DNA of 64,000 nucleotides, taken from the IMG/VR virus record IMGVR_UViG_3300042154_002686, positions 1 to 64,000 of that record; one strand, given 5' to 3'. The position numbers were made by a program, and so were the translations under genes. How positions within the stretch are numbered: the first letter of the stretch is position 1; each line of letters opens with the position of its first letter. Of this stretch, positions 42,679 to 64,000 are shown piece after piece. Origin of the DNA: a virus. Below the pieces are notes generated by a model that was given only the letters and a program-made list of their open reading frames with translations, ran no database searches and was not told where the DNA came from.

Positions 42679-42873
42679 GGACAAGGTGGCTATCGCCACC
42701 TTTGTTGAGTGTCTACCGTCATTGTTTCTTTCTCAAACGCTTCCGTTCTTATGAAATAAGTAAAAATATTATTGATGTATTTGTTTTTAGAGTCTTCGGG
42801 TAGGTGCGAAGCACGGTCGATTTCGGAAAATAGTGCTCGCATCGGATACCCCCTGCCGTAGTGTCATGGAGCA

Positions 42874-43032
42874 ATGCGATACAACATCCGAAAGGGCGAA
42901 GGTTACATCCACTACATCATCGACACCCGCACCGACCGCAGGGTCAAGTTGGTCTATGGCTGGGAGATGGCTCTGAAGGTCTGCCGAGAATACAACCTCT
43001 TCTGGGCTGAGTTCAAGAAGACCAACTCGTAA
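42874..43032 (+). CDS. cassette ORF, 52 aa
   Basis: MRYNIRKGEGYIHY...; promoter and terminator flanks. Confidence 0.65.
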   Translation: MRYNIRKGEGYIHYIIDTRTDRRVKLVYGWEMALKVCREYNLFWAEFKKTNS

Positions 43033-43166
43033 GAACTAACGAGCCCCCACGGGGGCTCTTTTTTTTGACCTGCGAGGTAGGCCGTTGAGGGCATCAAATT
43101 GATATTGCACATGACCCCTCTCGCCCTCACTCTCATCTTATCAGCAACCCGCCACCCCTCCCGCAC

Positions 43167-43301
43167 ATGACCATCCTCGCCCTCGCCCTCGCCCTCGCTT
43201 ACGCCCTCGCCCTCGGCTGGCTTCTCCGTAAGATGAAGACCACCCCTGCCCTCCGCTCCGACCGCTCCGACCGAGTGACCATCTTCGGAGACAACCGCTA
43301 A
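43167..43301 (+). CDS. 44-aa single-TM peptide
   Basis: MTILALALALAYALALGWLLRK... Confidence 0.55.
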   Translation: MTILALALALAYALALGWLLRKMKTTPALRSDRSDRVTIFGDNR

Positions 43302-43335
43302 CCCCTCTCACCCACCCACCCACCCACCCACGCAC

Positions 43336-43530
43336 ATGACCCACGCCACCGCCACCGCCACCGTTAAGACCGACTGGGACTCCCTCCCCCTCGGTGAAGA
43401 CCTCTCCCACCTGTGCGGAGGTCGTAACAAGCACAAGACCGCCACCGAGGTGACCGACCTCGCCCCCTCGGGCGATGGCTGGAACATCCCCACCGCCTCG
43501 GCCATCCTCTCCGACCCCACCCTCGGCTAA
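43336..43530 (+). CDS. cassette ORF, paralogue of 47568-47768
   Basis: KTDWDSLPLGEDLSHLCGGRNKH. Confidence 0.7.
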   Translation: MTHATATATVKTDWDSLPLGEDLSHLCGGRNKHKTATEVTDLAPSGDGWNIPTASAILSDPTLG

Positions 43531-43573
43531 CCACCGAGGCAACCCCTCCAACCCCTCCAACCCTCCCACGCAC

Positions 43574-43792
43574 ATGACCACCGCCACCGCCCTCCCCGCC
43601 CTCCCGCCCGTCCTCCGCATCTCCCGCCCGACTCCTCTGACCACCGTCTGGTCTTATCTGGCCTCTGTCTCGGACGGAGACCGCATCGTCTTCCCCTGCG
43701 GTCTGCGGGTGACGGTCTCCGTCCGCAACCGCATGACCCTCGCCCTCATCATGGCGAAGCGAGGTCTCCGAGGCACGAAGCGAAACAGGTGA
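43574..43792 (+). CDS. cassette ORF
   Basis: MTTATALPALPP...; same CACGCACATG start context as 43336. Confidence 0.6.
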   Translation: MTTATALPALPPVLRISRPTPLTTVWSYLASVSDGDRIVFPCGLRVTVSVRNRMTLALIMAKRGLRGTKRNR

Positions 43793-43821
43793 ACGCCTGT
43801 TCACGGTGAACGAAAGTTCAC
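43789..43821. promoter_or_regulatory. tandem GTGAAC-N4-GTTCAC palindromes
   Basis: two 16-bp dyads; also at 45356, 46089, 49408. Confidence 0.7.
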
Positions 43822-43904
43822 TCTGCGGTAGGTGCGGCGGTGCGTAAATTTCGCCACCGAATTGTATCGCACAATGCGACCACATCGCCATGTTCATAGA
43901 TGCC

Positions 43905-44045
43905 ATGAAGAAGCCCCCCCAGCCCAAGAAGCCCAAGACCGCCAAGACCACCAAGCCCCTCACGGGCAAGGAACTCGCCAAGGAGGTGAACAAGTATCAA
44001 GGACTCGCCCGAGTCTCTCGGATGCTCGGCAACCTCTGGTCGTAA
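43905..44045 (+). CDS. basic cassette peptide, 46 aa
   Basis: MKKPPQPKKPKTAKTTKPLTGKELAKEVNK... Confidence 0.6.
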   Translation: MKKPPQPKKPKTAKTTKPLTGKELAKEVNKYQGLARVSRMLGNLWS

Positions 44046-44178
44046 GAACTACGGAGCCCCTGCGGGGGCTCCCTTTTTCGCAATGCGGTAGGTCGGTTAA
44101 TTGACCGAAATCAGTCGAATTATTTTCTGGTATCAGACCGTCAAATCGCTACATTCATCTTCGCACCCAATAAACGCC

Positions 44179-44415
44179 ATGTCTCATAAACTCAATGTCC
44201 TCACCCTCGCCCGCACGAACGCCCTCGCCCGCATCCGCAATGTTGGCGACAACATCGCTGATGCCAAGGAGAACCTTCGCCTCTCCGTCCTCAACCACGG
44301 AACTGGAAGCAAGGCGTGGAACTTCTGGAAGTCCGAACTCGCTCGCCATGACAGCGAGTGGACTGAAGTCTGCAACGAACTGCGGGAAATCGACTGGGAA
44401 CTCGGAAACAAGTAA
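44179..44415 (+). CDS. cassette ORF
   Basis: cassette architecture. Confidence 0.7.
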   Translation: MSHKLNVLTLARTNALARIRNVGDNIADAKENLRLSVLNHGTGSKAWNFWKSELARHDSEWTEVCNELREIDWELGNK

Positions 44416-44534
44416 GACGAAACGGGGAGCGAGTGCTCCCCTTTTTTGTGCCCCGAGGGTAGGCCGACCAGTGCGTAGATTTCGACAAAGATTTTGGTTT
44501 ACTCGGACGATGGTTCAACTACTGTGATGGTCTC

Positions 44535-44702
44535 ATGCAACCCGCTCCCCTGCCCGACCTCACTTACCTCTACATGCTCTCCGTTGAACTTGGAGACATT
44601 GCCCAATACTGCGACCGTGGTTCGCCCGAAGACCTCGCTTATCAGAAGGCGAAGCAAGACTACCTCGATGCGGTCTTCATGGGCGAAGACGAAGAGGGCT
44701 AA
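44535..44702 (+). CDS. acidic cassette ORF, 55 aa
   Basis: MQPAPLPDLTYLYML...GEDEEG; leaderless start. Confidence 0.65.
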   Translation: MQPAPLPDLTYLYMLSVELGDIAQYCDRGSPEDLAYQKAKQDYLDAVFMGEDEEG

Positions 44703-44847
44703 AGCCCCCGCCCGAAAGGAGTGAGAGACCCCAAGCGGGTCTCTCTTTTTCGCTCTGCGGATAGGCCGACCAATTGACCGAAATCAGTCGCACTTTGTTC
44801 TGGTATCCTGTCGGGTTTGTGCTACTGTGTCCTTGTTCCCAATACCC

Positions 44848-45048
44848 ATGATTACTAATGACCATACCGCCATCTGCTCCCGATACGCCCACCTCGGTGA
44901 CGCAGTCTGCTTTCGTCTCACCGCCATCGCCCGCACGATGCTCGTCATGCAGGGGCGACTTGCTCGCCTCGATAAGCGAGCGGGGGCTATGGCCGAACTT
45001 GCCCGATGCCGAGCCATGTGGTTCGAACTGACGGGGGAGAGGGTTTAA
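44848..45048 (+). CDS. cassette ORF
   Basis: cassette architecture. Confidence 0.6.
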   Translation: MITNDHTAICSRYAHLGDAVCFRLTAIARTMLVMQGRLARLDKRAGAMAELARCRAMWFELTGERV

Positions 45049-45173
45049 GACTCTCGCCCAGTTAGAACAGAAACGGAACCCATCGGGTTCCTTTTTTGTT
45101 CCCTGCGGGTAGGTCGCTACAACCGCCATTTTGCTCTCGACTTGGCCGATGCTTCTGCCACTCTGTTGGTCTT

Positions 45174-45359
45174 ATGACCTCCTCCTCCTCCCGCTCGCTG
45201 GCCCTCGCCCTCGCCTCGCACGAGGCCCACCTGCTCGACCTCGCCCTTCGCAGGGCCGAGTGCGTAGCCATGGGCCTCAATCCCGAGGACTATGTCCCCG
45301 CTGACCCCGTCTTTGACGAGGAGGACTATCGTCCCATCGTGCGGAAACGCTACGGGTGA
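45174..45359 (+). CDS. cassette ORF
   Basis: cassette architecture. Confidence 0.65.
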   Translation: MTSSSSRSLALALASHEAHLLDLALRRAECVAMGLNPEDYVPADPVFDEEDYRPIVRKRYG

Positions 45360-45389
45360 ACGCCCGTTCACTGGTGAACATTTGTTCAC
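45356..45389. promoter_or_regulatory. tandem GTGAAC-N4-GTTCAC palindromes
   Basis: seen directly. Confidence 0.7.
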
Positions 45390-45473
45390 TTCGTGGGTAG
45401 GCTGGCTCCTGCGTAAAATTGGGCAACGATTTGTATCGACCCAAGCCAAGGAATGACCACATTCATCTGTGCC

Positions 45474-45671
45474 ATGAAGAACGCATCCCTCCTCCCCCGC
45501 AACGCTCACCTCGCCATCAAGGAAGCCATCCTCGATGCTAAGGAAGCAAGGAACGAACTCAACCGCCTCGGCTCCCGCTACCACGGAATGTCCGAGAAGG
45601 TCGAAGAGCCCATCAAGAGCCTCGAAACCCTCATCGCCCGCCTCGAAGCGGTTCTCCCCAAGGCCGAGTGA
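45474..45671 (+). CDS. cassette ORF
   Basis: cassette architecture. Confidence 0.7.
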   Translation: MKNASLLPRNAHLAIKEAILDAKEARNELNRLGSRYHGMSEKVEEPIKSLETLIARLEAVLPKAE

Positions 45672-45803
45672 GGCCGAGGGTAAGAACCAGCGAGACCCCG
45701 AGTGGGGTCTCTTTTTTGGTCTGCGGGTAGGTCAGTTTGTGCATAGATTTAGACAAATAATTTCATCGACTATGAGCATCGGATAGCCACATTCACCTCT
45801 GCC

Positions 45804-46079
45804 ATGACGCACTCCTCCTCCCCCGCCTCGCCCGTGTTCCTCGTCACCGTTCAGTCCGTAGAATACTACGGTGAACGCTACTACAAGTTCAAGGGCGGGT
45901 TCAATGTCCTCGTCTCCACGGACAAGGACGCTACGGCCTTCGGCCTCGTCCTCGAATACCTTGTGGCGAACAAACTCGCCTCGGGCTACTACCCGAAGCA
46001 TGCCGAGCGGTTCGAGACCGAGGCAGATGCCCTCGCCACCCTCGACCCCGAATGGGAGACGGTCAGAGTCCGCCTCTGA
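45804..46079 (+). CDS. cassette ORF
   Basis: VEYYGERYYKFKGG; cassette architecture. Confidence 0.75.
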   Translation: MTHSSSPASPVFLVTVQSVEYYGERYYKFKGGFNVLVSTDKDATAFGLVLEYLVANKLASGYYPKHAERFETEADALATLDPEWETVRVRL

Positions 46080-46088
46080 GCGGAACAG

Positions 46089-46122
46089 GTGAACGGGTGT
46101 TCAGTAATGAACACTTGTTCAC
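46089..46122. promoter_or_regulatory. tandem TGAAC-N4-GTTCA palindromes
   Basis: seen directly. Confidence 0.7.
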
Positions 46123-46219
46123 TTCGTGGGTAGGCCGACTGGTGCTTAGATTTCGCCACCGAATTATCTCGATTTTTTTAAAACGACCCCCATAGTAATG
46201 GATGCATCAAGCAACCCAC

Positions 46220-46363
46220 ATGAACGACCTCCATAACAAAATCACCAAACTCGAAAACCGCCTCGCCAAGCGATGCCACCTCATCGGCCCTCGCTTCCGT
46301 GCCGCCCTCGAAAAGCGTCTCGAAGCAATGTATCAGCAGTTCAACGCCCGCCTCGCCAAGTAA
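46220..46363 (+). CDS. basic cassette peptide, 47 aa
   Basis: MNDLHNKITKLENRLAKR... Confidence 0.6.
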   Translation: MNDLHNKITKLENRLAKRCHLIGPRFRAALEKRLEAMYQQFNARLAK

Positions 46364-46486
46364 GGCGAAAGGACTAACCGCCCCCTCACGGGGGCTTTTT
46401 GTTCTCTTCGAGGGTAGGCCGATTAATTGACCGTTCGCTCATTAAAAACGAGTTGCGTCAGCACCCCCACCGTTTACCTTCATCTC

Positions 46487-46768
46487 ATGGCAATCACGCC
46501 CCACGGAGGTAAAACGAGCGACTCCTCCCGCTCTCCCACGGAAGTCTACCAGATGCTCGTCAGCATCTCGCAAGCCATCCGAGACGGTCGGAACGGCCTC
46601 GACCCCTTCGGCCACAAGTTGGCCGACCTCATGTCCGACCTCTTGGACGAAGTCCGAGACGAGGTCGAAGCGGCACGGAAGGAGGAACTAATCCTCCGAG
46701 CCAAGCGAGCGGCTCAAAACCTCTCCGACGACCTTCGGGCTCACGCTGTCGAAGAACACAGAGAGTAA
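46487..46768 (+). CDS. cassette ORF
   Basis: cassette architecture. Confidence 0.7.
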   Translation: MAITPHGGKTSDSSRSPTEVYQMLVSISQAIRDGRNGLDPFGHKLADLMSDLLDEVRDEVEAARKEELILRAKRAAQNLSDDLRAHAVEEHRE

Positions 46769-46888
46769 GAAGAACGGAGACCCTTCGGGGTCTCCTTTTT
46801 TTATTTCGTGGGTAGGCCGCCCCGTGCGTAGATTTCGACAAAGAATTTTGTTTACTTCGGTCACGAATTGACCACATTCATCTTTGCC

Positions 46889-47113
46889 ATGACGCACTCC
46901 CCCGCACTCGATGCCCTCCTCGAAACCAACCCCGCACTCTGGTTCGCTTACCAGAACCACGCCAACTACAAGGCCAAGGCCAAAGCCCACGAAGAAAAGA
47001 AGGAGTGGGCCAAGGCCACTTACTACCACGAACGCTCCATTAGCACTATCGGCTTCATCCACTCCATGGGCTACTCTGCCAAGAACATCGGCCAGCCCCG
47101 AGCAATCAAGTAA
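46889..47113 (+). CDS. cassette ORF
   Basis: cassette architecture. Confidence 0.7.
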   Translation: MTHSPALDALLETNPALWFAYQNHANYKAKAKAHEEKKEWAKATYYHERSISTIGFIHSMGYSAKNIGQPRAIK

Positions 47114-47242
47114 GACGAGACGGGAGAGGCGAAAGCCTCTCTCTTTTTGTCTGCGGGTAGGTCTGATACTGCATAAAATCAAGCAACGAATTTTCTGGTA
47201 TTCTACCGTGGATGCCGTAGTGTCATGGTCTCCCACCCAGCC

Positions 47243-47437
47243 ATGAACAAGACCAACCCAGAAGCCCGCCTCCGCCACATCGAAACCGTCCGTGCCCTGC
47301 GTCTCGCCCACGCCCGACACATGGCGAACTTCGACCGATACGCTCGCCTTGAAATGTTTGAGGCCGCACAGTATTGGCTCGGTCGGGCCAGCGAGGCCCA
47401 CAAGCAACTCCTCGACCTTGGAGAGATTGCCATCTAA
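47243..47437 (+). CDS. cassette ORF
   Basis: cassette architecture. Confidence 0.65.
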   Translation: MNKTNPEARLRHIETVRALRLAHARHMANFDRYARLEMFEAAQYWLGRASEAHKQLLDLGEIAI

Positions 47438-47567
47438 TCGATGGTCAGACCCAACGAGAGCCTTCGGGCTCTCTTTTTTTCTCTACGAGGGTAGGTCTGC
47501 TGGTGCGTAAATTTCGCCAGCGATTGTCGTTTACTTTTGGCACGGGATGACCACATTCATCTTTGCC

Positions 47568-47768
47568 ATGACGCACTCCTCCTCCCCCGCAACGACCGCC
47601 ACCAAGACCGACTGGGACAACCTCCCCCTCGGTGAAAACCTGTCCCACCTCTGCGGAGGTCGGAACAAGCACCCCCGCCTCGCCTCCGAGGTCGAGACCC
47701 AGACGAAGGACGACACGGTTCGCCCCTTCACTGCGAGCGAACTCCTCGGGGATGTTAGCATCGGCTAA
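47568..47768 (+). CDS. cassette ORF, paralogue of 43336-43530
   Basis: KTDWDNLPLGENLSHLCGGRNKH. Confidence 0.7.
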   Translation: MTHSSSPATTATKTDWDNLPLGENLSHLCGGRNKHPRLASEVETQTKDDTVRPFTASELLGDVSIG

Positions 47769-47900
47769 CCCCCGATGTTAGTTCTCAAACAAGAGCCTTC
47801 GGGCTCTTTTTTTGTCCCTGCGGATAGGTCTGTCTGTGGGTAAAATTCGACAAAGATTTTTGTTGTATCGGACGAGGAAAGCCCCCAGACTGTCGGAGTA

Positions 47901-48113
47901 ATGAAACTCCTCGCAACCGACATGACCCACAACGACATTCAAATTGCCAAGAACGCAACGATGGATGCCTTCGACACCCTCGAAGCCATCAAGTGCAAGT
48001 ATCCCGCCCTCGGGGAAGAGTGGGACAGCATCATCGCTGTCCAGCGTTTGCTGGTGAACCACACAATTGCTCTCTCCAATCTTGAAAACGCTCGAAACGG
48101 TTTGAAGCAGTAA
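47901..48113 (+). CDS. cassette ORF
   Basis: cassette architecture. Confidence 0.7.
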   Translation: MKLLATDMTHNDIQIAKNATMDAFDTLEAIKCKYPALGEEWDSIIAVQRLLVNHTIALSNLENARNGLKQ

Positions 48114-48245
48114 GAACAAGCGAGCCCCAAGTGGGGCTCTCTTTTTGTCTGCGAGGGTAGGTCCGAGACTGCGTAAAAATCGCCAGCGATTGTTATCGAT
48201 TTTTTTGAAAAACAGTCCATGGTTGTAGTCGCACCAACGCAACCC

Positions 48246-48455
48246 ATGATTAATCCCAATGCCGAGTTACTCCTCCACCTGTTCGCCAGCCAGAGCCTTC
48301 CCCTGCTCCAATGGACTGCTCGCAAGCGACAGAACTCCCTCTACATGCTGACCGTAAGGCAGGACATTACGGTAGACCAGCATATGAACTACATGGACAA
48401 TCTTGACGAAGTTGTAGCCTTCGTTCACGAATACGACCCGCCCTCGGTCAAGTGA
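48246..48455 (+). CDS. cassette ORF
   Basis: cassette architecture. Confidence 0.65.
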   Translation: MINPNAELLLHLFASQSLPLLQWTARKRQNSLYMLTVRQDITVDQHMNYMDNLDEVVAFVHEYDPPSVK

Positions 48456-48597
48456 GGGAAAGGTCTAATCGCCCCCTCACGGGGGCTTTTTATTTAGACC
48501 CCGAGGTAGGTCTGGCAATTGACCGAACGCTCATAAAATGGTGCTCGCTTTTTATGCGTTGGTGGTTCACAGTGTTGGAGTAATCAATAACCCTCCC

Positions 48598-48735
48598 ATG
48601 CATAACATCATCTCGTTCACCTCCGAAGAGTCCCTCGCCAAGTTCCTCTCGAACTTTGACATTACCACGAACCGCTTCACGGTCGAACAGACCTCGAAGA
48701 ACGGTTTCCTCCTCACCTTCTACCCGAGCATCTAA
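48598..48735 (+). CDS. cassette ORF, 45 aa
   Basis: cassette architecture. Confidence 0.6.
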   Translation: MHNIISFTSEESLAKFLSNFDITTNRFTVEQTSKNGFLLTFYPSI

Positions 48736-48909
48736 CCCACCCGAAAGGGCTCACCTCTACGGGGGTGGGCTCTTTTATTTTCTACGAGGGTAGGTGCGGA
48801 GGTGCGTGAAATTCGGCACACTTTTTTCTGGTATTTCGAGGTCTGTGTGCTACTGTGATGTCGCACTCAGCAACACCCACCCACACCCCCACCCACCACC
48901 ACCACCACC

Positions 48910-49161
48910 ATGTTCGTCTACACCGAAGAATACGCCCGCCAGCAGTCCGAAGCCCGCTCCGAGGCCATCCGTGCCCGTGCGGAATACGAGAAGACCGTCA
49001 CCCGCCAGAACGCCATGGCCGAGGCGTGGGATGCGGTCGAGAAGGCCGAGGACGACTGCCGCAAGGCCAAGGGCACGGTCGCCCGCAAGGAGGCCAAGAA
49101 GGCTCTGGCTTACGCTGACTGGGTCTGGAAGACCATGAACGACCCCAAGTTCAAGGTGTAA
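48910..49161 (+). CDS. cassette ORF (helical)
   Basis: cassette architecture. Confidence 0.7.
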   Translation: MFVYTEEYARQQSEARSEAIRARAEYEKTVTRQNAMAEAWDAVEKAEDDCRKAKGTVARKEAKKALAYADWVWKTMNDPKFKV

Positions 49162-49266
49162 TCCCAAACGAGCCCCTCACGGGGCTTTTTTGTGCCCTCT
49201 GCGGGTAGGTCTGGCGAGCCGCCATTTTGTTGTTGCTTTGCGGGCTGGTTGTGTCACTCTCTTCTT

Positions 49267-49400
49267 ATCGCTCCTGCGATATCAGTCTAATCGGTCTTCC
49301 CAGCAGTTAGTAGCCACTAACTCTAAGGCGGACACTGCTGGGATACGCCTCCCGATAGACTAACATAAGACCACCCCTTCGGGGGTGGCAGTTTGTTTTT
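49267..49400 (+). ncRNA. structured non-coding RNA cassette
   Basis: GTAGG motif, TTGCTT-16-CACTCT promoter and terminator but no ATG; nested stems and a possible pseudoknot. Confidence 0.7.
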
Positions 49401-49407
49401 GTGACTA

Positions 49408-49440
49408 GTGAACATTTGTTCACCATGAACATTTGTTCAC
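49408..49440. promoter_or_regulatory. tandem TGAACATTTGTTCAC palindromes
   Basis: seen directly. Confidence 0.7.
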
Positions 49441-49520
49441 CCTGCGGGTAGGCAACTTATACGACCGAACGCTCATAAGATAAAACTCGCACAAGCCCCC
49501 CGCCATGCTACTCTGATGAC

Positions 49521-50513: not shown

Positions 50514-50631
50514 CCCCAAACCAGCCCCTTCGGGGGCTTTTTTGTGCCCATCGAGGGTAGGTCGGACACTGCGTAAAAATCGGCAAAGATTTTTCTGGTT
50601 TTGGGGCAAAAGTGTGTTAGTGTGTTGGAGT

Positions 50632-51859: not shown

Positions 51860-52001
51860 GCCACGAAAGCCACGGTCTCGTAATACGGAACGCCCCCCGA
51901 TGGGGGCTTTCTTTTTGTCTACGAGGGTAGGCATGTTAATTGACCGAACTTTCATAAAGAATGTTATTGAAAATTTTAAAAATTGGTCTACATTAGCGTC
52001 T

Positions 52002-52281: not shown

Positions 52282-52515
52282 ATGCACCCCGCCCCCCAAG
52301 ACTGCAACCCGCCCGAACTGTTCCTCTACTCCGCCACTCGGACTTACCTCCGCTTGGAAGCGAATACGGACGGTCGAATGAAGATGAGCAAAGCGGCTCG
52401 TCCGAACGCCCTGCTCCTGCTCGAAGTTCACGCTGGCGTGAAACTCGGGAAGCGAGTCAGCCCGAAGGAACTCTACGAAAAGTTCAACGAAGCCTTCGGC
52501 AAATACCTTCCGTAA
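52282..52515 (+). CDS. cassette ORF
   Basis: cassette architecture. Confidence 0.7.
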   Translation: MHPAPQDCNPPELFLYSATRTYLRLEANTDGRMKMSKAARPNALLLLEVHAGVKLGKRVSPKELYEKFNEAFGKYLP

Positions 52516-56379: not shown

Positions 56380-56496
56380 TCCACGCTGGGGGGATGCTTA
56401 ACGCATCCCTTTGGTGCGGGGGTAGGCTCGGTAATTGACCGAACTTTCATAAAGATTTTGCTCGGCAAGCGACCATCTTTCTGCATGATACTAAAC

Positions 56497-57027
56497 ATGG
56501 AAATCACTCCAATGGGGTTCACCTCCGACAGCGTCTCCCCCGCTGTCCTCACCGCCAACGCCACCGCCTTCGTGGAGGCTTGCAAGTCCCGCAAGGGTCA
56601 GTTCATCAAGTTGGACTACAAGTCCAACCCCGCCCCCAAGTCGGAGTTCAAGGGCACGACCCTCGAAAAGGTGACCGCTGGCATCTTCCGCACGGGGGTG
56701 GACTTCTCCAACCTCACCGCTGTTAAGGAGGCGATTGAGAATAAGGAGCGTGGCGAGGTTCAGTCCCTCCCCAAGGGTCAGACTTGGGCGGTGTTCCCCT
56801 TCGTCATCAAGACGGACAAGGGCGGGGAGTTGCTCCGCATCACGGTTGCCAAGGGTCAGTATCCCTCGGTGGTCTACAAGGTCGATGGGGTCGAAGTCTC
56901 GAAGGAAAACTTTGAGTCTTACCTGCCCAAGTCCAAGCAGTCCGACCCGAACCGTGAACCCCTGCTGGTCTTTACCATCAAGTCCGAAAACCTTATCAGC
57001 GTGGCGGGCACGGAACTCACCGAATAA
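56497..57027 (+). CDS. cassette ORF, 176 aa
   Basis: leaderless start 71 nt after motif. Confidence 0.8.
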   Translation: MEITPMGFTSDSVSPAVLTANATAFVEACKSRKGQFIKLDYKSNPAPKSEFKGTTLEKVTAGIFRTGVDFSNLTAVKEAIENKERGEVQSLPKGQTWAVFPFVIKTDKGGELLRITVAKGQYPSVVYKVDGVEVSKENFESYLPKSKQSDPNREPLLVFTIKSENLISVAGTELTE

Positions 57028-57218
57028 GGGGTGAGGCAGGGGGGAGGTGGGACTCCCCCCTGTTAGTGCCTCCCAAAACCCAAGACCCCCCACGGGGTCA
57101 AAGGGCGGGGTAGGTTCTGTATGAGATGGAAATAAATGAAAATTGTGTTGAACTGTGAACCCCAATCTGCATTATCAGTTGAGTCGAAAGACACCAACAA
57201 ACCAAAAAACACCAAAAC

Positions 57219-57380
57219 ATGACCGACCCCCACGACTACGAATACGACTACGAAAGCGATGACGACCGCATGGACAGGGAGGATGCCCAATCCGAAGCCG
57301 AAGGCTCGGGCTACTACCGAGATATGCCCGTCCGCAACGAGGATGGCGAAATCATCGACTCCTCTGGCTGGGGAGTGTAA
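57219..57380 (+). CDS. 53-aa hyperacidic peptide
   Basis: MTDPHDYEYDYESDDDRMDREDAQSEAEGSGYYRDMPVRNEDGEIIDSSGWGV. Confidence 0.65.
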   Translation: MTDPHDYEYDYESDDDRMDREDAQSEAEGSGYYRDMPVRNEDGEIIDSSGWGV

Positions 57381-57527
57381 AGTAATCGCCTCACCCGAAA
57401 GGGTGGGGCTTCTTTGTGTCCAATGGGGGTAGGTATGTAATGCCGTCAAACAATCATAAATAGTTCTTGTATTTTGAGGCATCTGTGCTATTGTTACAGT
57501 CCATCACCAACCCAACAAAACACCAAA

Positions 57528-57773
57528 ATGAGCAATATGTCTTACTGTCGGTTCAGCAACACGGCCTCGGATATGCAGGACTGCGTGGACGAGTGGAACG
57601 AAGGAGTGTCGAGCAAGGATGAAGCCATCGCCCGCAAGGAGATGGTCGAACTTGCCGAGCGTATCCTTGAACTCTATCAGCAGGATAGAGGCATGGTCAA
57701 CAACCTCGAACTCAATGCCGAAGGCAGGGAGATGGAGGGCGATGACGAGGACGAGACCGAGGAGGAGGGTTAA
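57528..57773 (+). CDS. acidic phage protein (MSNMSYCRF type)
   Basis: MSNMSYCRFSNTASDMQDC. Confidence 0.75.
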   Translation: MSNMSYCRFSNTASDMQDCVDEWNEGVSSKDEAIARKEMVELAERILELYQQDRGMVNNLELNAEGREMEGDDEDETEEEG

Positions 57774-57904
57774 GCCCTCCTTTCCAAGACAGCCCACGGG
57801 CTGTTCCTTGGCGGGGGGTAGGCTTCTTAATTGACCGAACTTTCGTAAAGATTTGGGTTGTAGATGACCTCAATCCATGCATTATTGTAAGTCTAATCCC
57901 TCCC

Positions 57905-58738
57905 ATGACCACCACCACCGCCCCCAAGTCCACGGTTGCCGATGTTATCGCTGACCGCTTCATCAAGTCCCTCGAAAACGGAGTCGCCCCTTGGCAAAAG
58001 CCGTGGGCGAGCGTCCGCCCCCAGAACGGTGTCAGCCGTAAGCCTTACAAGGGCGTAAACGCCTTCATGCTGGCCTTCTTCGGGGGTGATGACTACTTCC
58101 TCACTTACAAGCAAGCCAAAGCCCTTGGCGGGCAGGTGGAAGAGGGTGCAAAGGGTATCCCCGTGACCTTCTGGAAGCGTATGGAGAAGAAGGACAAAAG
58201 CGGGGACTATCTGGTTTGCCGATACTACACGGTTTTCCCCGTGTCCAAGTGCGGACTCCCCGACTTCAAACGGGCGAACAAGGTCATTACCTTCTCCCCC
58301 GTAGAACTTGCCGAGGTCGTTCTTGCGAAGAACACGACCCCCGTCAGCCACGGCGGAGCCTCGGCTTACTACACGCCCTCCAAGCATGCAATCCAGATGC
58401 CCAATAAGGAGTCCTTCAAGTCGGTTGCTAACTATTACGCAACCCTCTTCCATGAGATTGGGCACTCCCTCGGGGAGCACTCCTCGGACTCCTTCGGGGG
58501 TGAGGTCTACGCAAAGGAGGAACTTGTGGCCGAACTTTTCGCCTCGATTGCCCTCCAACATTGCGGACTCCTCGAAAGCGTAAACTTCGACAATTCGACC
58601 GCTTACCTCGGGTCTTGGCTGAAAGCCCTTAATGATGATAAGACTCTCATCCAGAAAGCCAGCACGGAAGCCTTCAAGCGGTGGGAGAAACTGATGGGCA
58701 AGGTCGAAGAGGAGGTCGAGGAGGAGGTCGAGGCATAA
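57905..58738 (+). CDS. ardC: ArdC-like antirestriction protein (ssDNA-binding N-domain plus zincin-like domain)
   Basis: LENGVAPWQKPW, YKGVN, TYKQAKALGGQV, YYTVF, AYYTPS, TLFHEIGH, YAKEELVAE. Confidence 0.9.
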   Translation: MTTTTAPKSTVADVIADRFIKSLENGVAPWQKPWASVRPQNGVSRKPYKGVNAFMLAFFGGDDYFLTYKQAKALGGQVEEGAKGIPVTFWKRMEKKDKSGDYLVCRYYTVFPVSKCGLPDFKRANKVITFSPVELAEVVLAKNTTPVSHGGASAYYTPSKHAIQMPNKESFKSVANYYATLFHEIGHSLGEHSSDSFGGEVYAKEELVAELFASIALQHCGLLESVNFDNSTAYLGSWLKALNDDKTLIQKASTEAFKRWEKLMGKVEEEVEEEVEA

Positions 58739-58892
58739 GACCTCGGGGGTGGGGGCTGTTAGCCCTCACCCTTTTTTGTGTCCTCCCAAAAGGGCAAGGC
58801 ACGGAGTAGGTTCCTTAATTGACCGAACAATCGTATGGGGGGTCAAAGATTGTTCTCGCCTTTTGGGTGAAAGTGGTCATGCTGTATGTCCG

Positions 58893-59183
58893 ATGAATAA
58901 CACCACACCCACACACACGCTCCGCTTCACCTCTAACATGGTCTTCTGCAAGACCGAGTTTATGGCATCAGAGGAGTCCGTCACCCACGCCCTTAACATC
59001 CTGCAAGGCGAGCCAGACCTTGAACTCATGGTCGAGGTCAAGGAGACCCCCATGTCCGCAGGTCAAGAGTTCCCTTGCCTCTATCGGGTCAGCCCCACCA
59101 AGCCCGACCCCGAAGGGGATGCCTTTTGGTTTCTGACCGCAACCCTCTCAAACGGGCAGGAAGTTTATCTCCTGCAACGGTAA
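58893..59183 (+). CDS. cassette ORF
   Basis: cassette architecture. Confidence 0.7.
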   Translation: MNNTTPTHTLRFTSNMVFCKTEFMASEESVTHALNILQGEPDLELMVEVKETPMSAGQEFPCLYRVSPTKPDPEGDAFWFLTATLSNGQEVYLLQR

Positions 59184-59224
59184 AATAAACTTGCAATCCA
59201 TCCAACTCTAATCATACTCTCCTT

Positions 59225-59431
59225 ATGAATAACCTCAATACCTGTTCGTGCGGTAGCGGCAAGCCTTCCTTCTGGATTAATGACGGGCACGGCATCCCGC
59301 TGTGCAAGGTCTGCCCGACCTGCAAGGCGACCAAGTTGAAGGGGTATCGGTCGGACATTATGACGGCTTACTCGGCAGACGAGCCGATTGACGGGGACGG
59401 CTTTGCCGACTACGGAAACGAGGGCTGGTAG
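59225..59431 (+). CDS. small zinc-binding protein
   Basis: CSCGSGK...LCKVCPTC; TTGCAA-16-CATACT leaderless promoter. Confidence 0.75.
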   Translation: MNNLNTCSCGSGKPSFWINDGHGIPLCKVCPTCKATKLKGYRSDIMTAYSADEPIDGDGFADYGNEGW

Positions 59432-59558
59432 CCCTTCTTTTTGGGAGCCCCGAGGGGGGCTCTCTTTGCGGGGGTAGGCTCTTAATGACGGCAATTTGTC
59501 GTAAATGAGACTTGTAAATGACCCCGACCTGTGCATCATGTATTGTCTATCACCTCCC

Positions 59559-59771
59559 ATGAAAGACCCAAAAATCCACGCCATCGTCTCCGACCTCTAC
59601 TACCTCTGGCTCGACCAGATTGATGTTCGGAATACCTCCAAGTATGGAACTGCCAAATACGCCAAGGCGGAAGCCAAGGCTGACGAGTATGAGAACAAGG
59701 CTTCCATGATGGTCTTTGGAGACCACCTCCATACCATGACCGAGTGCTTCTACGGCAGGGAGGAAGAATAA
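59559..59771 (+). CDS. cassette ORF
   Basis: cassette architecture. Confidence 0.7.
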   Translation: MKDPKIHAIVSDLYYLWLDQIDVRNTSKYGTAKYAKAEAKADEYENKASMMVFGDHLHTMTECFYGREEE

Positions 59772-59819
59772 TCCAAAATAACACTTGCAATTTATCCAAA
59801 CCCATACATACTACTAAAC

Positions 59820-60179
59820 ATGATGAAAATCAAAGAAACCCCCACCCACTTCTCCGAAACCACCGTTAAGGACGGCAAGGTTTATTTTGACGGCCATGTT
59901 GCCGTCCTGTTTTCCGTTGGCTTTGGTGCTGGCTGGTCTACTTGGAACAGGGATGTGGACTGCCTGTTTACCCCCGCTATTGTCGAGCAGGTCATGCAGG
60001 GCGAAGTCACGCAGGAGTTTGCCAAGTCGTGCTACTCCGATGCCCCTTACTTCTATGCTGGGGGCAATGACGGCCTGTCCATCGCATGGGTCAAGGTCGG
60101 GACGAAGTTCCGCATCACGGAATACGATGGTGCGGAGGGTATCGAGACTCTCGACCAGACCGATTGGAAGACGGCTTGA
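59820..60179 (+). CDS. conserved-looking phage hypothetical protein
   Basis: VAVLFSVGFGAGWSTWN...FRITEYDGAE. Confidence 0.8.
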   Translation: MMKIKETPTHFSETTVKDGKVYFDGHVAVLFSVGFGAGWSTWNRDVDCLFTPAIVEQVMQGEVTQEFAKSCYSDAPYFYAGGNDGLSIAWVKVGTKFRITEYDGAEGIETLDQTDWKTA

Positions 60180-60304
60180 TAGTCGTGCCAGAGTCCAGCC
60201 TTACGGCTGGGCTCCATGCCGTGGGGGTAGGTTTCTTGCGGGCATAAAATAGTTCTTGTATTTTGAGCCATTCCATGCACAATGTCTTTCTCATCACCCA
60301 ACAC

Positions 60305-60625
60305 ATGAACAACAACACCACCCCCCTGTCCGCTTTCTTGGCGGAACACACCACCCACCTCCCCTCGGAAGTCCTTGTCCTCTGGATGGACAACCTTAAC
60401 GAGACCGTCCCGACCCGCAAGTTGCTCGACCAAGCGGAAGACGCTTACATTGGCGAGTTCCGAGACTTCACCCGCCTTGCCGAGCATCTGGTAGACGAGT
60501 CGGGCATGCTCTCTAACATCCCCTCCGAAATCGCCAACTATTTCGATTATGAGAAGTATGGCAACGACCTCCGACTTGGCGGGGATGTCTGGGAGTCGGA
60601 TGGGCACTTCTTCCGCAACATCTAA
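60305..60625 (+). CDS. ardA: ArdA-like antirestriction (DNA-mimic) protein
   Basis: EDAYIGEF...AEHLVDESGML.NIPSEIANYFDYEKYGNDL...GHFF. Confidence 0.85.
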   Translation: MNNNTTPLSAFLAEHTTHLPSEVLVLWMDNLNETVPTRKLLDQAEDAYIGEFRDFTRLAEHLVDESGMLSNIPSEIANYFDYEKYGNDLRLGGDVWESDGHFFRNI

Positions 60626-60638
60626 TCCAACACCAACC

Positions 60639-60806
60639 ATGAAAAAACCCAAAATCAAAAACACCGTGGACACGGAACAAGTCCTCGCTTGGCTCGGGGA
60701 CGACGACACCCTTGAACAGGCTATCGAAATCATTGCCGACATTGCAAACGGGGACTACAAGCCCAACTTGCTCCGACAGGAAATCACCGATTATAACCAA
60801 GAATAA
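60639..60806 (+). CDS. hypothetical protein
   Basis: MKKPKIKNTVDTEQVLAWLG... Confidence 0.65.
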   Translation: MKKPKIKNTVDTEQVLAWLGDDDTLEQAIEIIADIANGDYKPNLLRQEITDYNQE

Positions 60807-61060
60807 TGGAAACTATGAACGACATTGAAAAGCAAATTGTGGCATTAAACTCTGATTATCTCACCTGCCCCGAGACCCTGCCTCGGGCGTGGTCGGAGAT
60901 GACTCCGAGCGAGCAAGCCATGACCATCTGGTTCGTTAAGGGGCGTTCCTTCTTCTATGTGGATAAGATTGCCCGCCATGTGGTCGCCTGTGCCATCGAG
61001 AAGAACGGTGGGACGATTACCGAAGAAGAGGCGACTCGGCTCTGGGGGCTGTTTCACTGA
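60806..61060 (+). CDS. hypothetical protein
   Basis: TAATG coupling. Confidence 0.65.
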   Translation: METMNDIEKQIVALNSDYLTCPETLPRAWSEMTPSEQAMTIWFVKGRSFFYVDKIARHVVACAIEKNGGTITEEEATRLWGLFH

Positions 61061-61179
61061 CACCCCTCATTTTTCCGACCCCCCGTCAACGGGGGCAAGG
61101 CGGGGTAGGCTTCTAATTGAGCGAAACATTTCATTAGATTTTTCTTGAACTTTGGTTCAAACTATGAATAATGATTTGA

Positions 61180-61353
61180 ATGAACCACCCCATCCGATAT
61201 AACATCAATGACTACATCTACGCAGAAGCGGAAGTTATCCGTGCCCACCGCTACGGAAACCTTGCCGAGCAAATCAAGGCAACGGAACACAAGCAGAAAG
61301 TCCTCAAAGCCATGGAAGAACAGCGAAAGGAAGACGAAGAAAACCGAAAATAA
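61180..61353 (+). CDS. cassette ORF, 57 aa
   Basis: MNHPIRYNINDYIYAEAEV...; ATG 71 nt after motif. Confidence 0.6.
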   Translation: MNHPIRYNINDYIYAEAEVIRAHRYGNLAEQIKATEHKQKVLKAMEEQRKEDEENRK

Positions 61354-61393
61354 ATCTCGACAAAAGAGAAAAACCATGCACAATGACTCTCGT

Positions 61394-61534
61394 ATGAAAA
61401 CCAAATCCATCAAGTTCATCGACATTATGACCAGCGTCCGCAAGGTCGGGGGTCGGGCTTCCTCTGTCTTCATCGGCAAGAAAGCCAAGGTTCGTGCCAA
61501 CCGCCACGCTTGGAAGAAGGAGGAACTCGTCTAA
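61394..61534 (+). CDS. basic 46-aa peptide, paralogue of 52002-52136
   Basis: IMTSVRKVGGRAS...KKAKVRANRHAWK. Confidence 0.7.
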   Translation: MKTKSIKFIDIMTSVRKVGGRASSVFIGKKAKVRANRHAWKKEELV

Positions 61535-61788
61535 TGCGAACCAACTCAAAAGTCACGAAGGAGGAACTCCGCATGGCCTCCGAGGAGACTCGCTACATCC
61601 TCAAAAAGCCTCCGCTTGAATACGCCAACACCGATGCTGGGTTTGGTGCGGCTACGAGGGACTTTGAATTCCTCATGGACTACGCCCTTGGGACTGACGA
61701 GGGAGAGGTCATCAACAACGCCTTGGATTGGAAACGCTGGGAACTCCAAGCGTATTACAAGAAACTCCACGGATGGGACATTGTTTAA
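61534..61788 (+). CDS. hypothetical protein
   Basis: TAATG coupling. Confidence 0.65.
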   Translation: MRTNSKVTKEELRMASEETRYILKKPPLEYANTDAGFGAATRDFEFLMDYALGTDEGEVINNALDWKRWELQAYYKKLHGWDIV

Positions 61789-61790
61789 TT

Positions 61791-61985
61791 ATGAGCAATC
61801 AGACATTCCGAGTTAAGAACATCGAGACGGGAGAAATCCATGTCTGGGATGCCAAGCGGGTTCTTGCGGAAATCAACCGAGACCGCTATGACGAGTGGAT
61901 GAACTATGACGAGGATGACGACATTCGTGGGGCTTGGAACATCTGGGTCGAGGATGGAGAACCTTGGCGGATGTTGGACGAGTAA
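61791..61985 (+). CDS. hypothetical protein
   Basis: VLAEINRDRYDEWMNYDE motif. Confidence 0.7.
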   Translation: MSNQTFRVKNIETGEIHVWDAKRVLAEINRDRYDEWMNYDEDDDIRGAWNIWVEDGEPWRMLDE

Positions 61986-62102
61986 GTAGTCGAGCCCCTT
62001 CGGGGGCTCTTCTTTTGTCTTGCCGTGGTAGGCTTTTAATGACGGCAGATTGTCGTAAAATTGTGTTGTATTAACGCCAGAAGTGTGAACAATGTCTCTC
62101 GT

Positions 62103-62324
62103 ATGAACAACCTCATCCATCCCTCCCTCCGTTCCCTTCACGCCCTCCGAGATGTTGAAGGGGATGCCATTGACCCTCACTTCTCTTGGAGTCCCTGCGA
62201 GTGCTGTGGAGACCGCCTTGGCGGTAATCGCTACGACTGTGAAGCCCTTGCCGTTGAGAACGGGGTTCTGGTTCAACTCGACAACTGCTCGGCTTGCCCC
62301 GACTGCATTGTGAAGTTTCAGTAA
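62103..62324 (+). CDS. Cys-rich cassette ORF
   Basis: FSWSPCECCGDRLGGNRY...CPDC. Confidence 0.75.
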   Translation: MNNLIHPSLRSLHALRDVEGDAIDPHFSWSPCECCGDRLGGNRYDCEALAVENGVLVQLDNCSACPDCIVKFQ

Positions 62325-62380
62325 AATAAACTTGCATTAATAAAAAAACCTGCCATACTGCATCTCACATCACCAATACT

Positions 62381-62686
62381 ATGAACCTCGGCATCGAATA
62401 CAAAATCAAATACTTCACCAACTACGAAACAAAGGAGGAGAAGGAGATTGTTATCACCATGGACAAGGTAGACAACCTCTACATTGGCAAGGGCAATTCC
62501 TGCCGTTGCGGATGCGGGGGCGACTATTTTGAAATTGATGAAAACGAGCGAGCCATCGAGAAATCCCTGCGACAAATGTCCAGCGGTGAATACGAGGTTC
62601 GCTCCATTGAGGACTACATCTTCGAAATCACCACCAGCGTAAATGGTGACTACGAGCGTGTGAAAACGCTCTACCTCAAAAAATAA
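62381..62686 (+). CDS. hypothetical protein
   Basis: YIGKGNSCRCGCGGDY; own promoter TTGCAT-16-CATACT. Confidence 0.75.
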   Translation: MNLGIEYKIKYFTNYETKEEKEIVITMDKVDNLYIGKGNSCRCGCGGDYFEIDENERAIEKSLRQMSSGEYEVRSIEDYIFEITTSVNGDYERVKTLYLKK

Positions 62687-62725
62687 ACCTTGCAAAAACA
62701 GAAAAACCTGTTATCTTGTATCTCT

Positions 62726-63022
62726 ATGAATAACCCCGAACAGTTCCAGAAAGTTAAGAATGAAGTCACGGACGAAATCGTAAAGCGATACGGACACCCT
62801 GTGTCCTTTTGGGAGAAGTTCCAAATCAAGAACATTGTCGGCAAGGTCATGGCGGAGGCGGACAAGAATGGGGAGGCTTGCCTCATCTACCAAGCCGTAG
62901 CAGAAATGGCGGAAAAGATGCACGAAGAATGCGTGGTGGAGTTTGAAGACGAATTGGAGTGCAAGCAGAGGTCTGGCCGTGTTCTTGGCATTTGTTGCCA
63001 TGCGAACGCACTTTGTGGCTAA
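62726..63022 (+). CDS. hypothetical protein
   Basis: TTGCAA-16-TATCTT leaderless promoter. Confidence 0.65.
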   Translation: MNNPEQFQKVKNEVTDEIVKRYGHPVSFWEKFQIKNIVGKVMAEADKNGEACLIYQAVAEMAEKMHEECVVEFEDELECKQRSGRVLGICCHANALCG

Positions 63023-63146
63023 CCGTAGCACCCTGTTAAAACACCCCTCTGGGGGTGTGTTTAGCACGGGGGTAGGCTTTTAATTGCACGAAGATTGTCG
63101 TAAAATGTTGTTGCCTTTGACCCCAAAGTGTGAATGATGTATGTCT

Positions 63147-63473
63147 ATGACCACCCATACTACTCCTCGATACTACCTCACCCCCTGCATCGGCTCGACC
63201 GAGCAAAAGAGTGACGGCATCCGCTACATCATGGCAGAGCCGTCTTACATCCGCTCGCTTGTGCGTGAAGCAGTTAAGAGTGGCAATACCGACACCTTCT
63301 CCGAAGAGGTTATCATCCACTCGAAGGATGGCGGTGACAACTCCCCGCAGGACTCCGAAGTCTATGTTGCCCGATTTGACACCCATGCTTCTTGGGGTCT
63401 CCGTCTTGACATTGACATTGACGAGTCTTCTACGCAGACCCTCTGGCTCGAATTCGTTCGAGACGCTAACTAA
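63147..63473 (+). CDS. cassette ORF
   Basis: ATG 71 nt after motif. Confidence 0.7.
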   Translation: MTTHTTPRYYLTPCIGSTEQKSDGIRYIMAEPSYIRSLVREAVKSGNTDTFSEEVIIHSKDGGDNSPQDSEVYVARFDTHASWGLRLDIDIDESSTQTLWLEFVRDAN

Positions 63474-63475
63474 TC

Positions 63476-63649
63476 ATGGAAGACCAAGATAAGCACCGCA
63501 TGGCAGAGGTTCGAGACCTTGTGCTTTATGTTATCCGAGCAAAGGACAAGTTGGATGGGCAGGGTGAACCTGCCCGTTCCGAGAACCTTGCCAGAATTCG
63601 AGAAGCCCAGATGCGACTTGAAGTCATAAAGGCAGAGATGGGGTTATGA
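63476..63649 (+). CDS. hypothetical protein, 57 aa
   Basis: MEDQDKHRMAEVRDLVLYVIRAK... Confidence 0.55.
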   Translation: MEDQDKHRMAEVRDLVLYVIRAKDKLDGQGEPARSENLARIREAQMRLEVIKAEMGL

Positions 63650-63697
63650 CCCCATTTTTGCCACCCCCCCTCACAGGCAAACAACTGGGGTAGGCTT

Positions 63698-63898
63698 TTA
63701 AATAGTTCGGAAGAAGGGGGGCATGCTTTGTAGAAAGAACTTTGCCGCTTCAACCATGTCCTCGTCTGTCCACTTCTTTTCGAGTTCAGCCACCCCAGAC
63801 TCTTTCAAAAGGTTTCTATATTTCTCGCAAGCCATCTTGTGACTGTCGGTTCCGACCGATGAGACCAGTTCAACTGACAGGAGTCTGTATTTATCCAT
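63698..63898 (-). CDS. hypothetical protein, inverted relative to the array
   Basis: own promoter TTGACA-16-CATACT on the minus strand. Confidence 0.6.
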   Translation of the reverse strand: MDKYRLLSVELVSSVGTDSHKMACEKYRNLLKESGVAELEKKWTDEDMVEAAKFFLQSMPPFFRTI

Positions 63899-64000
63899 GA
63901 CGATTAGTATGTATTAAGTTGGGGCATTGTCAATACGCAATTAGATAAATTTAGATTTGACTTTGGCTGTAAATATGTTATCATGTATGGATGCTACTAC

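Follow-up and report, generated by a model that had tools for sequence, protein, structure and literature searches.

A long array of probable PeSL-type modules with an additional TAGG-core heptamer in a phage genome from lake metagenomes

The first 64 kb of the 80,561-bp virus record IMGVR_UViG_3300042154_002686 (positions 1 to 64,000, hereafter the window) raise the question of how a row of small, unrelated genes that are set apart by one recurring intergenic module has arisen, and what the short word GGGTAGG in each module (the heptamer) is for. Up to 42.7 kb the window carries virion, packaging and replication genes, a tail fibre included, on the minus strand; at 42.8 kb the coding strand switches to plus and the row of cassettes begins. 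An earlier interpretation made without database searches (the sequence-only reading) had described about 49 standardised single-gene cassettes from here to the window end, had compared the layout to an integron array and had regarded the motif and the degree of standardisation as unfamiliar. The explanation that we favour, with a probability of about 60%, is a hyperplastic, presumably early region of a virulent-looking tailed lake phage that is built of 52 modules of the promoter-early stem-loop (PeSL) type and carries the heptamer as an extra element.

The heptamer GGGTAGG was found 40 times in the window, always on the plus strand, compared to 5.1 ± 2.1 copies (largest count 11) in dinucleotide-preserving shuffles, and 38 of the 40 are located between 42.8 and 63.7 kb. 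With one-base variants included ([GA][GAT]TAGG), the count rises to 49 sites in the window and, over the range 42,799–67,222, to 52 in the whole genome; 40 of these 52 copies read GGGTAGG, and all 52 are on the plus strand, none on the minus strand of the array. The array runs 3.2 kb past the window end and makes up 30% of the record. The spacing of the heptamers, calculated on 51 sites of a stricter pattern, was 235–421 bp in 38 of 50 intervals with a median of 371 bp. A single open reading frame (ORF) is present in 38 units and none in one unit, and about 11 units toward the right end contain two to five genes. The recurrent unit on one strand and the one cassette without an ORF are, therefore, as the sequence-only reading had described them.

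The module itself has a constant anatomy. A hairpin followed by a T-run stands directly 5′ of 38 of the 52 heptamers (7% at random positions of the array), and 80 terminator-like sites were counted in 20 kb, compared to 24 ± 5 in shuffles. The T-run and the heptamer are 8–12 nucleotides (nt) apart, and the distance from the heptamer to one of two boxes is fixed. No other word of the module is as well conserved, and no other element is common to all module classes; the centre of the heptamer is about 72 nt upstream of the predicted start site. In an ungapped alignment of the downstream sequences, information was kept at +14 to +24 and at +30 to +40. Modules of class A (n = 18) continue with N8-TGCGTAAAWTTCGnCAAAGATT and modules of class B (n = 15, plus 6 related ones) with N6-AATTGACCGAACGCTCATAAAG; 13 modules belong to neither class. 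Further downstream, a promoter-like element T[TCG]G-N16-TAnnnT was detected in 17 of the 52 modules (7% in shuffles, 2.7% in random 45-mers of the array), always with a 16-nt spacer and with the end of the −10 hexamer at +66 to +69; the remaining modules have weaker hexamers at the same place. A generic scan with the E. coli consensus promoter was weakly enriched (17 vs 8.9). Thus, the −35/16 bp/−10 promoter that had been proposed for every unit keeps its fixed place and its spacer, but the strict pattern is restricted to those 17 modules.

The ATG is found at +57 to +110 from the heptamer, most often at +69 to +78, and in many units only 7–9 nt after the −10 hexamer, which would leave about half of the mRNAs with no leader or hardly any. 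No Shine-Dalgarno sequence was found in the array units, and the stop codon precedes the next heptamer by 42–55 nt. The first unit of the array has a heptamer but no upstream terminator, which assigns the heptamer to the promoter side of the module. Two further parts of the intergenic sequences were noticed. A C/A-rich leader, GAGTCGAAAGACACC(A/C)AAC..., is located 5′ of five unrelated cargo ORFs (50932, 52253, 52635, 54301 and 57181) and also at 31253 of the related contig G001 introduced below; it contains no Shine-Dalgarno sequence and may be a translation signal. Since it recurs before unrelated ORFs, leaders too are shared parts. In four modules, tandem TGAAC-N4-GTTCA palindromes replace the terminator hairpin: of 10 matches (2.6 expected), 8 form four tandem pairs directly 5′ of heptamers. 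In their full form, (G)TGAAC-N4-GTTCA(C), the palindromes are perfect, and similar boxes are present in G001. The pattern is one that we take to be the LexA-box half-site pattern of Gram-positive-type bacteria and Chloroflexota; a repressor of the host or the phage may use the boxes as operators, and they may help to trace the host.

If the units are exchanged at the shared intergenic module, as had been proposed, gene order should differ between related phages, whereas a collinear, invariant order would speak against it. A 56-kb contig (G001) was found via the large terminase (terL, 86% identical) and the primase (92% identical), and it, too, contains an array. Its backbone is collinear with the genome studied here at 70–92% amino acid identity, and the about 28 cassettes common to both genomes (45–95% identity) are scrambled in order (Table 1). 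Orthologous cassettes are 80–100% identical at the nucleotide level over the ORF plus ~20–40 nt on each side, from where identity drops to ~50%, and the upstream module halves are unrelated. For the cargo gene 52282-52515, for example, the upstream module is unrelated to that of the G001 copy beyond ~20 nt. In a short contig (L041), homologues of 52282 (45% identity) and of 45804-46079 are adjacent, which are 6.5 kb apart here. Contig L009, whose primase is 96% identical, has kept the first array module with the heptamer GGGTAGG. Relatives with a primase of 72–77% identity have DUF932 3 kb from the primase, but in place of the array just a small operon-like region in which terminators are not dense. 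This dates the expansion to the array within a clade of at least 85% primase identity. The neighbouring gene for a 607-aa CBM protein was also used to find relatives, and these have no array next to it; a search of IMG/VR with the exact class A and class B module patterns gave only chance matches in coding DNA of unrelated phages.

Natural variants point to the same boundaries. Contigs of four lake metagenomes were aligned to 20 kb of the array, which gave 22 listed joints. With the module defined as −50 to +90 around the heptamer (32% of the stretch), 29 of the 44 joint ends fell into modules (p = 5.5e-6), and 11 of the 22 joints had both ends in modules. The joint that removes exactly two cassettes (46868-47548) is located inside a 32-nt stretch common to the modules at 46811 and 47490, a length near the assembler word length. 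The joint at 47830-48170 has its ends 7 and 14 nt after the heptamers, and in a third joint a backward jump of 3.7 kb connects two modules, the offsets being +49 and +50. The median length of exact matches between modules is 9 nt, with matches of at least 20 nt in 20 pairs and of at least 30 nt in three. Annealing-type recombination between similar modules is plausibly sufficient for many of the events, but not obviously for all. Taken together, the scrambled orthologues, the end of homology 20–40 nt outside the ORF and the clustering of joints in modules agree with the proposal that one-gene units are exchanged at the shared module.

The heptamer differs between lineages around a TAGG core: it reads cGnG-GGTAGG-Yc here and in L009, CCGnTT-GCTAGG-T or TTGTTAGGT in G001 and GCATAGGT in contig L058. 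In G001 the words TGCTAGG, in either orientation, and TGTTAGG occur, and the B-type modules of this contig have CCTACG or CCTAGC, the reverse complements of CGTAGG and GCTAGG, in place of GGTAGG. Because the motif occurs in either orientation at the same place, it would be recognised by a protein in duplex DNA and would not be a signal in RNA or in a single strand; most likely it is a double-stranded DNA site for a sequence-specific phage or host protein. Two tandem paralogous small proteins with two helix-turn-helix (HTH) domains each (Sigma70_r4_2/HTH_23 plus HTH_17; 49% identical to each other) are possible readers, a lead only and without link to the motif. G001 encodes one copy (64% identical) and was the only genome recovered in a search with the HTH alignment; 9 homologues were found among 5.8 billion proteins, apparently confined to this phage group. 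The structural model (predicted local distance difference test, pLDDT, 73) shows two three-helix bundles; its fold matches were not significant, the best being the HTH pairs of the Mos1 and Tc3 transposases and the Pax paired domain (E >= 0.085), and a protein atlas gave only leads below 0.9. A 158-aa protein encoded beside the primase (39753-40229, 36% identical to its G001 counterpart) was rejected as reader since it belongs to no DNA-binding family.

PeSLs are known from the T4-like phages RB49/phi1, PST/T4 and nt-1/KVP40 (Arbiol et al. 2010, PMC2839356; Comeau et al. 2014, PMC4122927). There, a stem-loop terminator is followed by an A/T-rich tract and a sigma-70-like early promoter and the element ends at the start codon; PeSLs are concentrated in hyperplastic regions among ORFans, genes are inserted, deleted, replaced or displaced at the elements with crossovers mapped inside them, and neighbouring PeSLs recombine to give circular cassette DNA (mini-circles). 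The modules described here share the composite of terminator stem-loop, A/T-rich tract immediately after it and (here predicted) promoter-like element up to the start codon, the clustering in a hyperplastic region rich in small ORFans, the insertion, deletion, replacement and displacement between relatives with boundaries in the elements, and a consensus that differs among phage lineages. As judged from sequence, every testable architectural and evolutionary feature of PeSLs appears to be present, lineage being the difference: the phage is not T4-like, since it has a lambda-type portal, a gpA-type terminase and a genome of 80.6 kb. This limits the statement "same lineage" but not "same kind", because PeSLs are defined by architecture and not by homology. 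Unlike PeSLs, of which the densest example quoted comprises eight in ~5 kb, the modules form one uninterrupted block of 52 elements that occupies 30% of the genome, they have no Shine-Dalgarno sequence and many nearly leaderless starts, and they contain between terminator and promoter an invariant heptamer that is absent from the descriptions of PeSLs (PMC2839356, PMC4122927). The novelty that had been claimed for this region was, thus, overstated with respect to layout and shuffling, which are already known from PeSLs; new are the lineage, the scale and the lineage-specific TAGG-core heptamer.

For the heptamer as a repeated asymmetric word, the closest precedents are the stoperators and the start-associated sequences of mycobacteriophages, and neither fits its position or context. 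The stoperators of cluster A phages, which are bound by the L5 repressor gp71 (McGinnis et al. 2022, PMC9283540), are likewise short asymmetric motifs in more than 20 copies in short intergenic spaces, with differences between related phages and an orientation tied to transcription (for the heptamer, in the genome studied here); however, they are 13-mers that are distributed genome-wide in temperate phages and serve a known immunity repressor that binds as a monomer and blocks elongation, whereas the heptamer has 7 nt, is restricted to one region of a genome in which neither an integrase nor a repressor was identified, and occurs in both orientations in G001. The start-associated sequences of cluster K phages, GGGATAGGAGCCC (Pope et al. 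2011, PMC3203893), are also asymmetric, in one orientation, in the non-structural half of the genome and beside unrelated genes, with a reader that is unknown there too, and their first eight bases resemble the GGATAGG variant found here; but they are located 3–7 bp before the start codon and contain the ribosome-binding site, whereas the heptamer lies 57–110 nt upstream of the ATG and before the promoter-like element. With integrons the array shares a one-directional row of small, unrelated and exchangeable genes. The comparison breaks down at every defining feature: neither an IntI tyrosine recombinase nor attC is present, and every unit comes with a terminator and a promoter-like element of its own. 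Integron cassettes, by contrast, lack promoters, end in the imperfect palindrome attC and are expressed from the common promoter Pc. Many small genes of unknown function, repeated promoters for the host polymerase (here predicted) and anti-host functions connect the array with the T4 early promoters, the SPO1 host-takeover module and the T5 pre-early region. To our knowledge, a strict pairing of each gene with one promoter and one terminator is not a feature of those regions, nor is an additional motif that all units share.

The function of the heptamer could be seen differently. Together with the A or B box it could be the real or obligatory promoter for a phage-specific machinery, be it an unrecognised RNA polymerase of the phage or its virion, a sigma-like factor or an activator, and the sigma-70-like hexamers would then be secondary or lie within a 5′ leader of ~70 nt. 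The motif is lineage-specific, has a fixed distance to the ATG and heads the first unit, which has no terminator, and several large proteins of the virion module belong to no family; all this would suit such a promoter, which we nevertheless regard as unlikely. Neither an RNA polymerase nor a full-length sigma factor nor a NusG-like family was found among the 142 ORFs of the record with Pfam or PHROGs, a leader of 70 nt leaves the constant element with its 16-nt spacer and a −10 hexamer ending 7–9 nt before many ATGs unexplained, and the B-type modules of G001 carry the motif in inverted orientation although their other parts are not turned round, which is ill-suited to a directional core. A sigma-54 pattern (−24/−12) and the heptamer as −35 element of the A or B box were also considered and rejected, since the spacings do not fit. 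Very unlikely is an action on the non-template strand or in read-through RNA, as an ops-like loading or pause site for antitermination or as a CUAC-GAGG-GUAG hairpin, by which the array would switch from one-gene to long read-through transcripts later in infection. The motif is indeed on the coding (non-template) strand in 52 of 52 cases, about 18 copies can pair CYRC/GUAG with the left flank, and the ops element of RfaH shares the GGTAG core. Pairing is, however, limited to about a third of the left flanks, and the motif is present as reverse complement in G001; for these two reasons a CYRC-N4-GTAG hairpin, in RNA or DNA, was rejected. Moreover, no NusG/RfaH-like protein was found among the 142 ORFs, and a motif upstream of its own promoter would be visible to read-through polymerases only.

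The heptamer as a recombination signal (a site of nicking or cleavage, a crossover site or a Chi-like hotspot), which would make the array an integrase-free capture system with an attC-like motif, is rather improbable. In five of the 22 joints, each end is no more than ~25 nt away from a heptamer and the letters between contain one, the heptamer with its flanks is the longest identical stretch shared by most module pairs, all copies are on one strand, and the phage encodes HNH endonucleases and a full recombination set. Yet many joint ends are located elsewhere, near +50 and at +81 to +88 (the ATG), the boundary between orthologues lies between the −35 region and the leader and not at the heptamer, and aligners place ends beside any short conserved word. 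Among the 142 ORFs, Pfam and PHROGs revealed neither an integrase nor a recombinase family, so the integrase that had been noted as missing from the window was not found in the full 80.6-kb record either. A Chi-like host signal was rejected because GGGTAGG is not over-represented (77 vs 170 for a control word) in the one metagenome-assembled genome (MAG) that contains a relative, L068 (see below); as the link to this host is weak, the count carries little weight. Equally doubtful is a far-reaching combination in which the TAGG-core heptamer would be the operator of a two-HTH monomer binder of the phage (the paralogues at 79180-79933, one per box class A or B) that would gate all 52 units in a stoperator-like manner without an integrase, with the same word as preferred crossover; the array would then be a self-regulating, integrase-free system for the capture and shuffling of anti-defence genes.

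According to the PeSL-type explanation, each module would start with the hairpin of an intrinsic terminator and continue with an A/T-rich tract and a sigma-70-like promoter that the host RNA polymerase uses, the leader being very short or missing. One small gene would be driven by most modules, of which a few are recognisable as anti-restriction or plasmid leading-region genes (ArdC, ArdA-like, DUF932), and each unit would probably be transcribed and terminated alone. Since the modules are repeated, recombination between them would delete, duplicate, reorder and replace cassettes, plausibly by the RecE-like exonuclease, RecT-like annealing protein, single-stranded DNA-binding protein (SSB) and RuvC-like resolvase that the phage encodes at 75–78.8 kb of the genome. 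The mobile unit would be the ORF with ~20–40 nt of leader, and the upstream module half would stay with the genome. All units would be controlled by a protein bound to the heptamer, be it an activator, a repressor, a roadblock or an insulator.

Several observations weigh against this explanation. The promoter hexamers are non-canonical, and the strict pattern is confined to a third of the modules; promoters, terminators, early timing and single-unit expression are inferred from sequence, as are the recombining agent and everything on the heptamer reader. The reader is still a matter of candidates, and a duplex-binding protein does not require that all 52 copies point in one direction. Only 3 of 67 cargo ORFs have an annotation of the anti-restriction or plasmid leading-region type. 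Some of the joint contigs may come from G001-like phages or from mis-assembly at repeats near the assembler word length; despite this, homology still stops at the modules. Finally, the ~9 identical bases of most module pairs are short for RecT-type annealing, and a different or site-directed mechanism is possible.

That the cargo ORFs encode proteins is indicated by purifying selection: dN/dS was 0.12–0.48 in 12 cassettes with orthologues in G001. A Pfam match was obtained for three of the 67 cargo ORFs (ArdC, ArdA-like and DUF932) and none for the other 64; PHROGs contributed three families with an anti-restriction label and a few others whose function is unknown. Paralogues within the array are few. 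The ArdC-like and ArdA-like ORFs that had been recognised in the sequence-only reading were both confirmed by Pfam (Table 1). In the ArdC-like protein the N-terminal single-stranded DNA-binding domain and the C-terminal zincin-like metallopeptidase domain both exceed the Pfam cut-offs, and the ArdA-like ORF has a G001 orthologue with 79% identity. The proposed anti-defence platform is, therefore, supported in part, by these three genes and not by the bulk of the cargo; an anti-defence or host-takeover role, which rests on the three, is plausible. A search with the 180-aa cargo protein recovered only G001. The insert of the ORF-less unit is ~105 nt long, and the predicted fold of 49262-49400, terminator hairpin included, has −55.8 kcal/mol (z −5.6); no Rfam match below E 0.1 and no copy in the relatives fetched was found. 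The unit at 43076-43826 contains three short Pro/Thr/Ala-rich ORFs of uncertain coding status, each after a C-rich repeat of the CCCACCCACGCACATGACC type and not after a full module.

Table 1 Positions of the array, its modules, cargo genes, joints and other genes. Positions are those of the window or, where marked, of the genome beyond it; kb values in the rows on cassette order are paired in the order given.
Feature	Position	Strand	Remarks
Cassette array	42798-64000	+	continues to ~67,228 of the genome, DUF932 cargo to 68,267
Heptamer sites ([GA][GAT]TAGG, first base)	42799, 43076, 43827, 44087, 44458, 44760, 45108, 45396, 45726, 46129, 46413, 46811, 47156, 47490, 47823, 48156, 48505, 48789, 49204, 49447, 49820, 50135, 50556, 50860, 51246, 51573, 51926, 52181, 52562, 52899, 53270, 53593, 53994, 54229, 54642, 55015, 55666, 56017, 56421, 57109, 57428, 57817, 58805, 59473, 60226, 61104, 62027, 63071, 63689	+	
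First array module	42798-42873	+	no upstream terminator; heptamer; promoter-like TCGCAT-16-TAGTGT; ATG 42874
Typical class A module	50523-50631	+	hairpin 50523-50538 and T-run; heptamer 50555-50561; A box TGCGTAAAAATCGGCAAAGATT 50570-50591; −35-like TGGTTT 50596-50601; −10-like TAGTGT 50618-50623; ATG 50632
Typical class B module	51892-52001	+	hairpin 51892-51907; heptamer 51925-51931; B box AATTGACCGAA 51938-51948; TTGAAA-16-TACATT 51967-51994; ATG 52002
Tandem TGAAC-N4-GTTCA palindromes in place of the terminator hairpin	43790-43820, 45357-45388, 46090-46121, 49409-49439	+	
Cassette order, window to G001	47.2, 49.9, 50.2, 51.0, 52.3 kb		G001 21.2, 28.5, 38.9, 31.3, 23.1 kb
Cassette order, window to G001, continued	52.7, 53.0, 53.7, 56.1, 56.5 kb		G001 23.9, 29.7, 28.0, 24.7, 31.8 kb
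Cargo with displaced orthologue	52282-52515	+	84% aa identity to G001 23062-23295; dN/dS 0.18
ORF-less unit, candidate small structured RNA	49204-49447	+	full frame: heptamer, promoter-like element, terminator
180-aa ORFan	56485-57027	+	no Pfam family; 68% and 55% identity to G001 31807 and 38126
ArdC-like anti-restriction protein, 277 aa	57905-58738	+	Pfam ArdcN E 2.6e-26, MPTase-PolyVal E 4.8e-28
ArdA-like protein, 116 aa	60275-60625	+	Pfam ArdA E 3e-14, C-terminal part of the model only
DUF932 cargo	genome 67257-68267		Pfam
Joint, exactly two cassettes missing	46868-47548	+	contig without 679 bp; run X2; flanks 100% identical
Joint, one cassette missing	47830-48170	+	two runs (X3, X5) of different studies; same 6 intervening letters
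Tandem paralogous two-HTH proteins, 134 and 118 aa	genome 79180-79584, 79577-79933	-	
Lambda-type portal	30326-32017	-	
gpA-type large terminase (terL)	33634-35511	-	
Primase/helicase	37666-39696	-	PHROG 2597 E 2.5e-53; transcribed away from the array; query for relatives

The rest of the genome places the phage apart from cultured ones. When 8 kb of the array were compared with 50,697 phage records by blastn, no match was obtained, so that no cultured phage with this DNA was found there, and the best matches of terL among phage records were 22–24% identical. No T4 core families were found with Pfam and PHROGs, whereas a lambda-family portal, a gpA terminase and an S49 protease are present. 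The DNA runs that contain the stretch are lake or freshwater metagenomes. The G+C content rises from ~44% in the left half of the window (virion genes, 1-26000) over 0.46–0.52 at 26–42 kb to ~55% from 42 kb on, and the coding strand is C-rich in the left part of the array. Eleven tRNA genes are located on the minus strand at 73.5–77.5 kb of the genome and adjoin the genes for SSB, the RecE-like exonuclease and the RecT-like protein; the RuvC-like resolvase and an SLT-domain transglycosylase, a possible lysin, follow the tRNA block on the plus strand. At 4064-5865 of the window, on the minus strand, a gene for a protein with a ParB N-terminal domain overlaps one for a PAPS-reductase-domain protein, a pair that suggests a DNA modification or nuclease function. 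As to the host, the 32-kb contig L068 (RGCW01000008.1), whose primase is 72% identical, is binned in a MAG of Candidatus Aquidulcis sp. (Chloroflexota, Limnocylindria), which gives a weak hint to Chloroflexota as the host phylum.

If the PeSL-type explanation is true, shuffling of this kind is not peculiar to T4-like phages and would be a general route by which phages build and renew early sets of host-directed genes, with the 52 units on 30% of the genome as an extreme case. New functions in anti-defence or host takeover could be sought among the ~65 small proteins, taken to be under purifying selection, that are encoded beside ArdA, ArdC and DUF932. The heptamer, with its three lineage versions around the TAGG core, offers a handle for finding the factor that reads it, and the natural variants in lake metagenomes provide a way to measure the turnover of cassettes in the wild.

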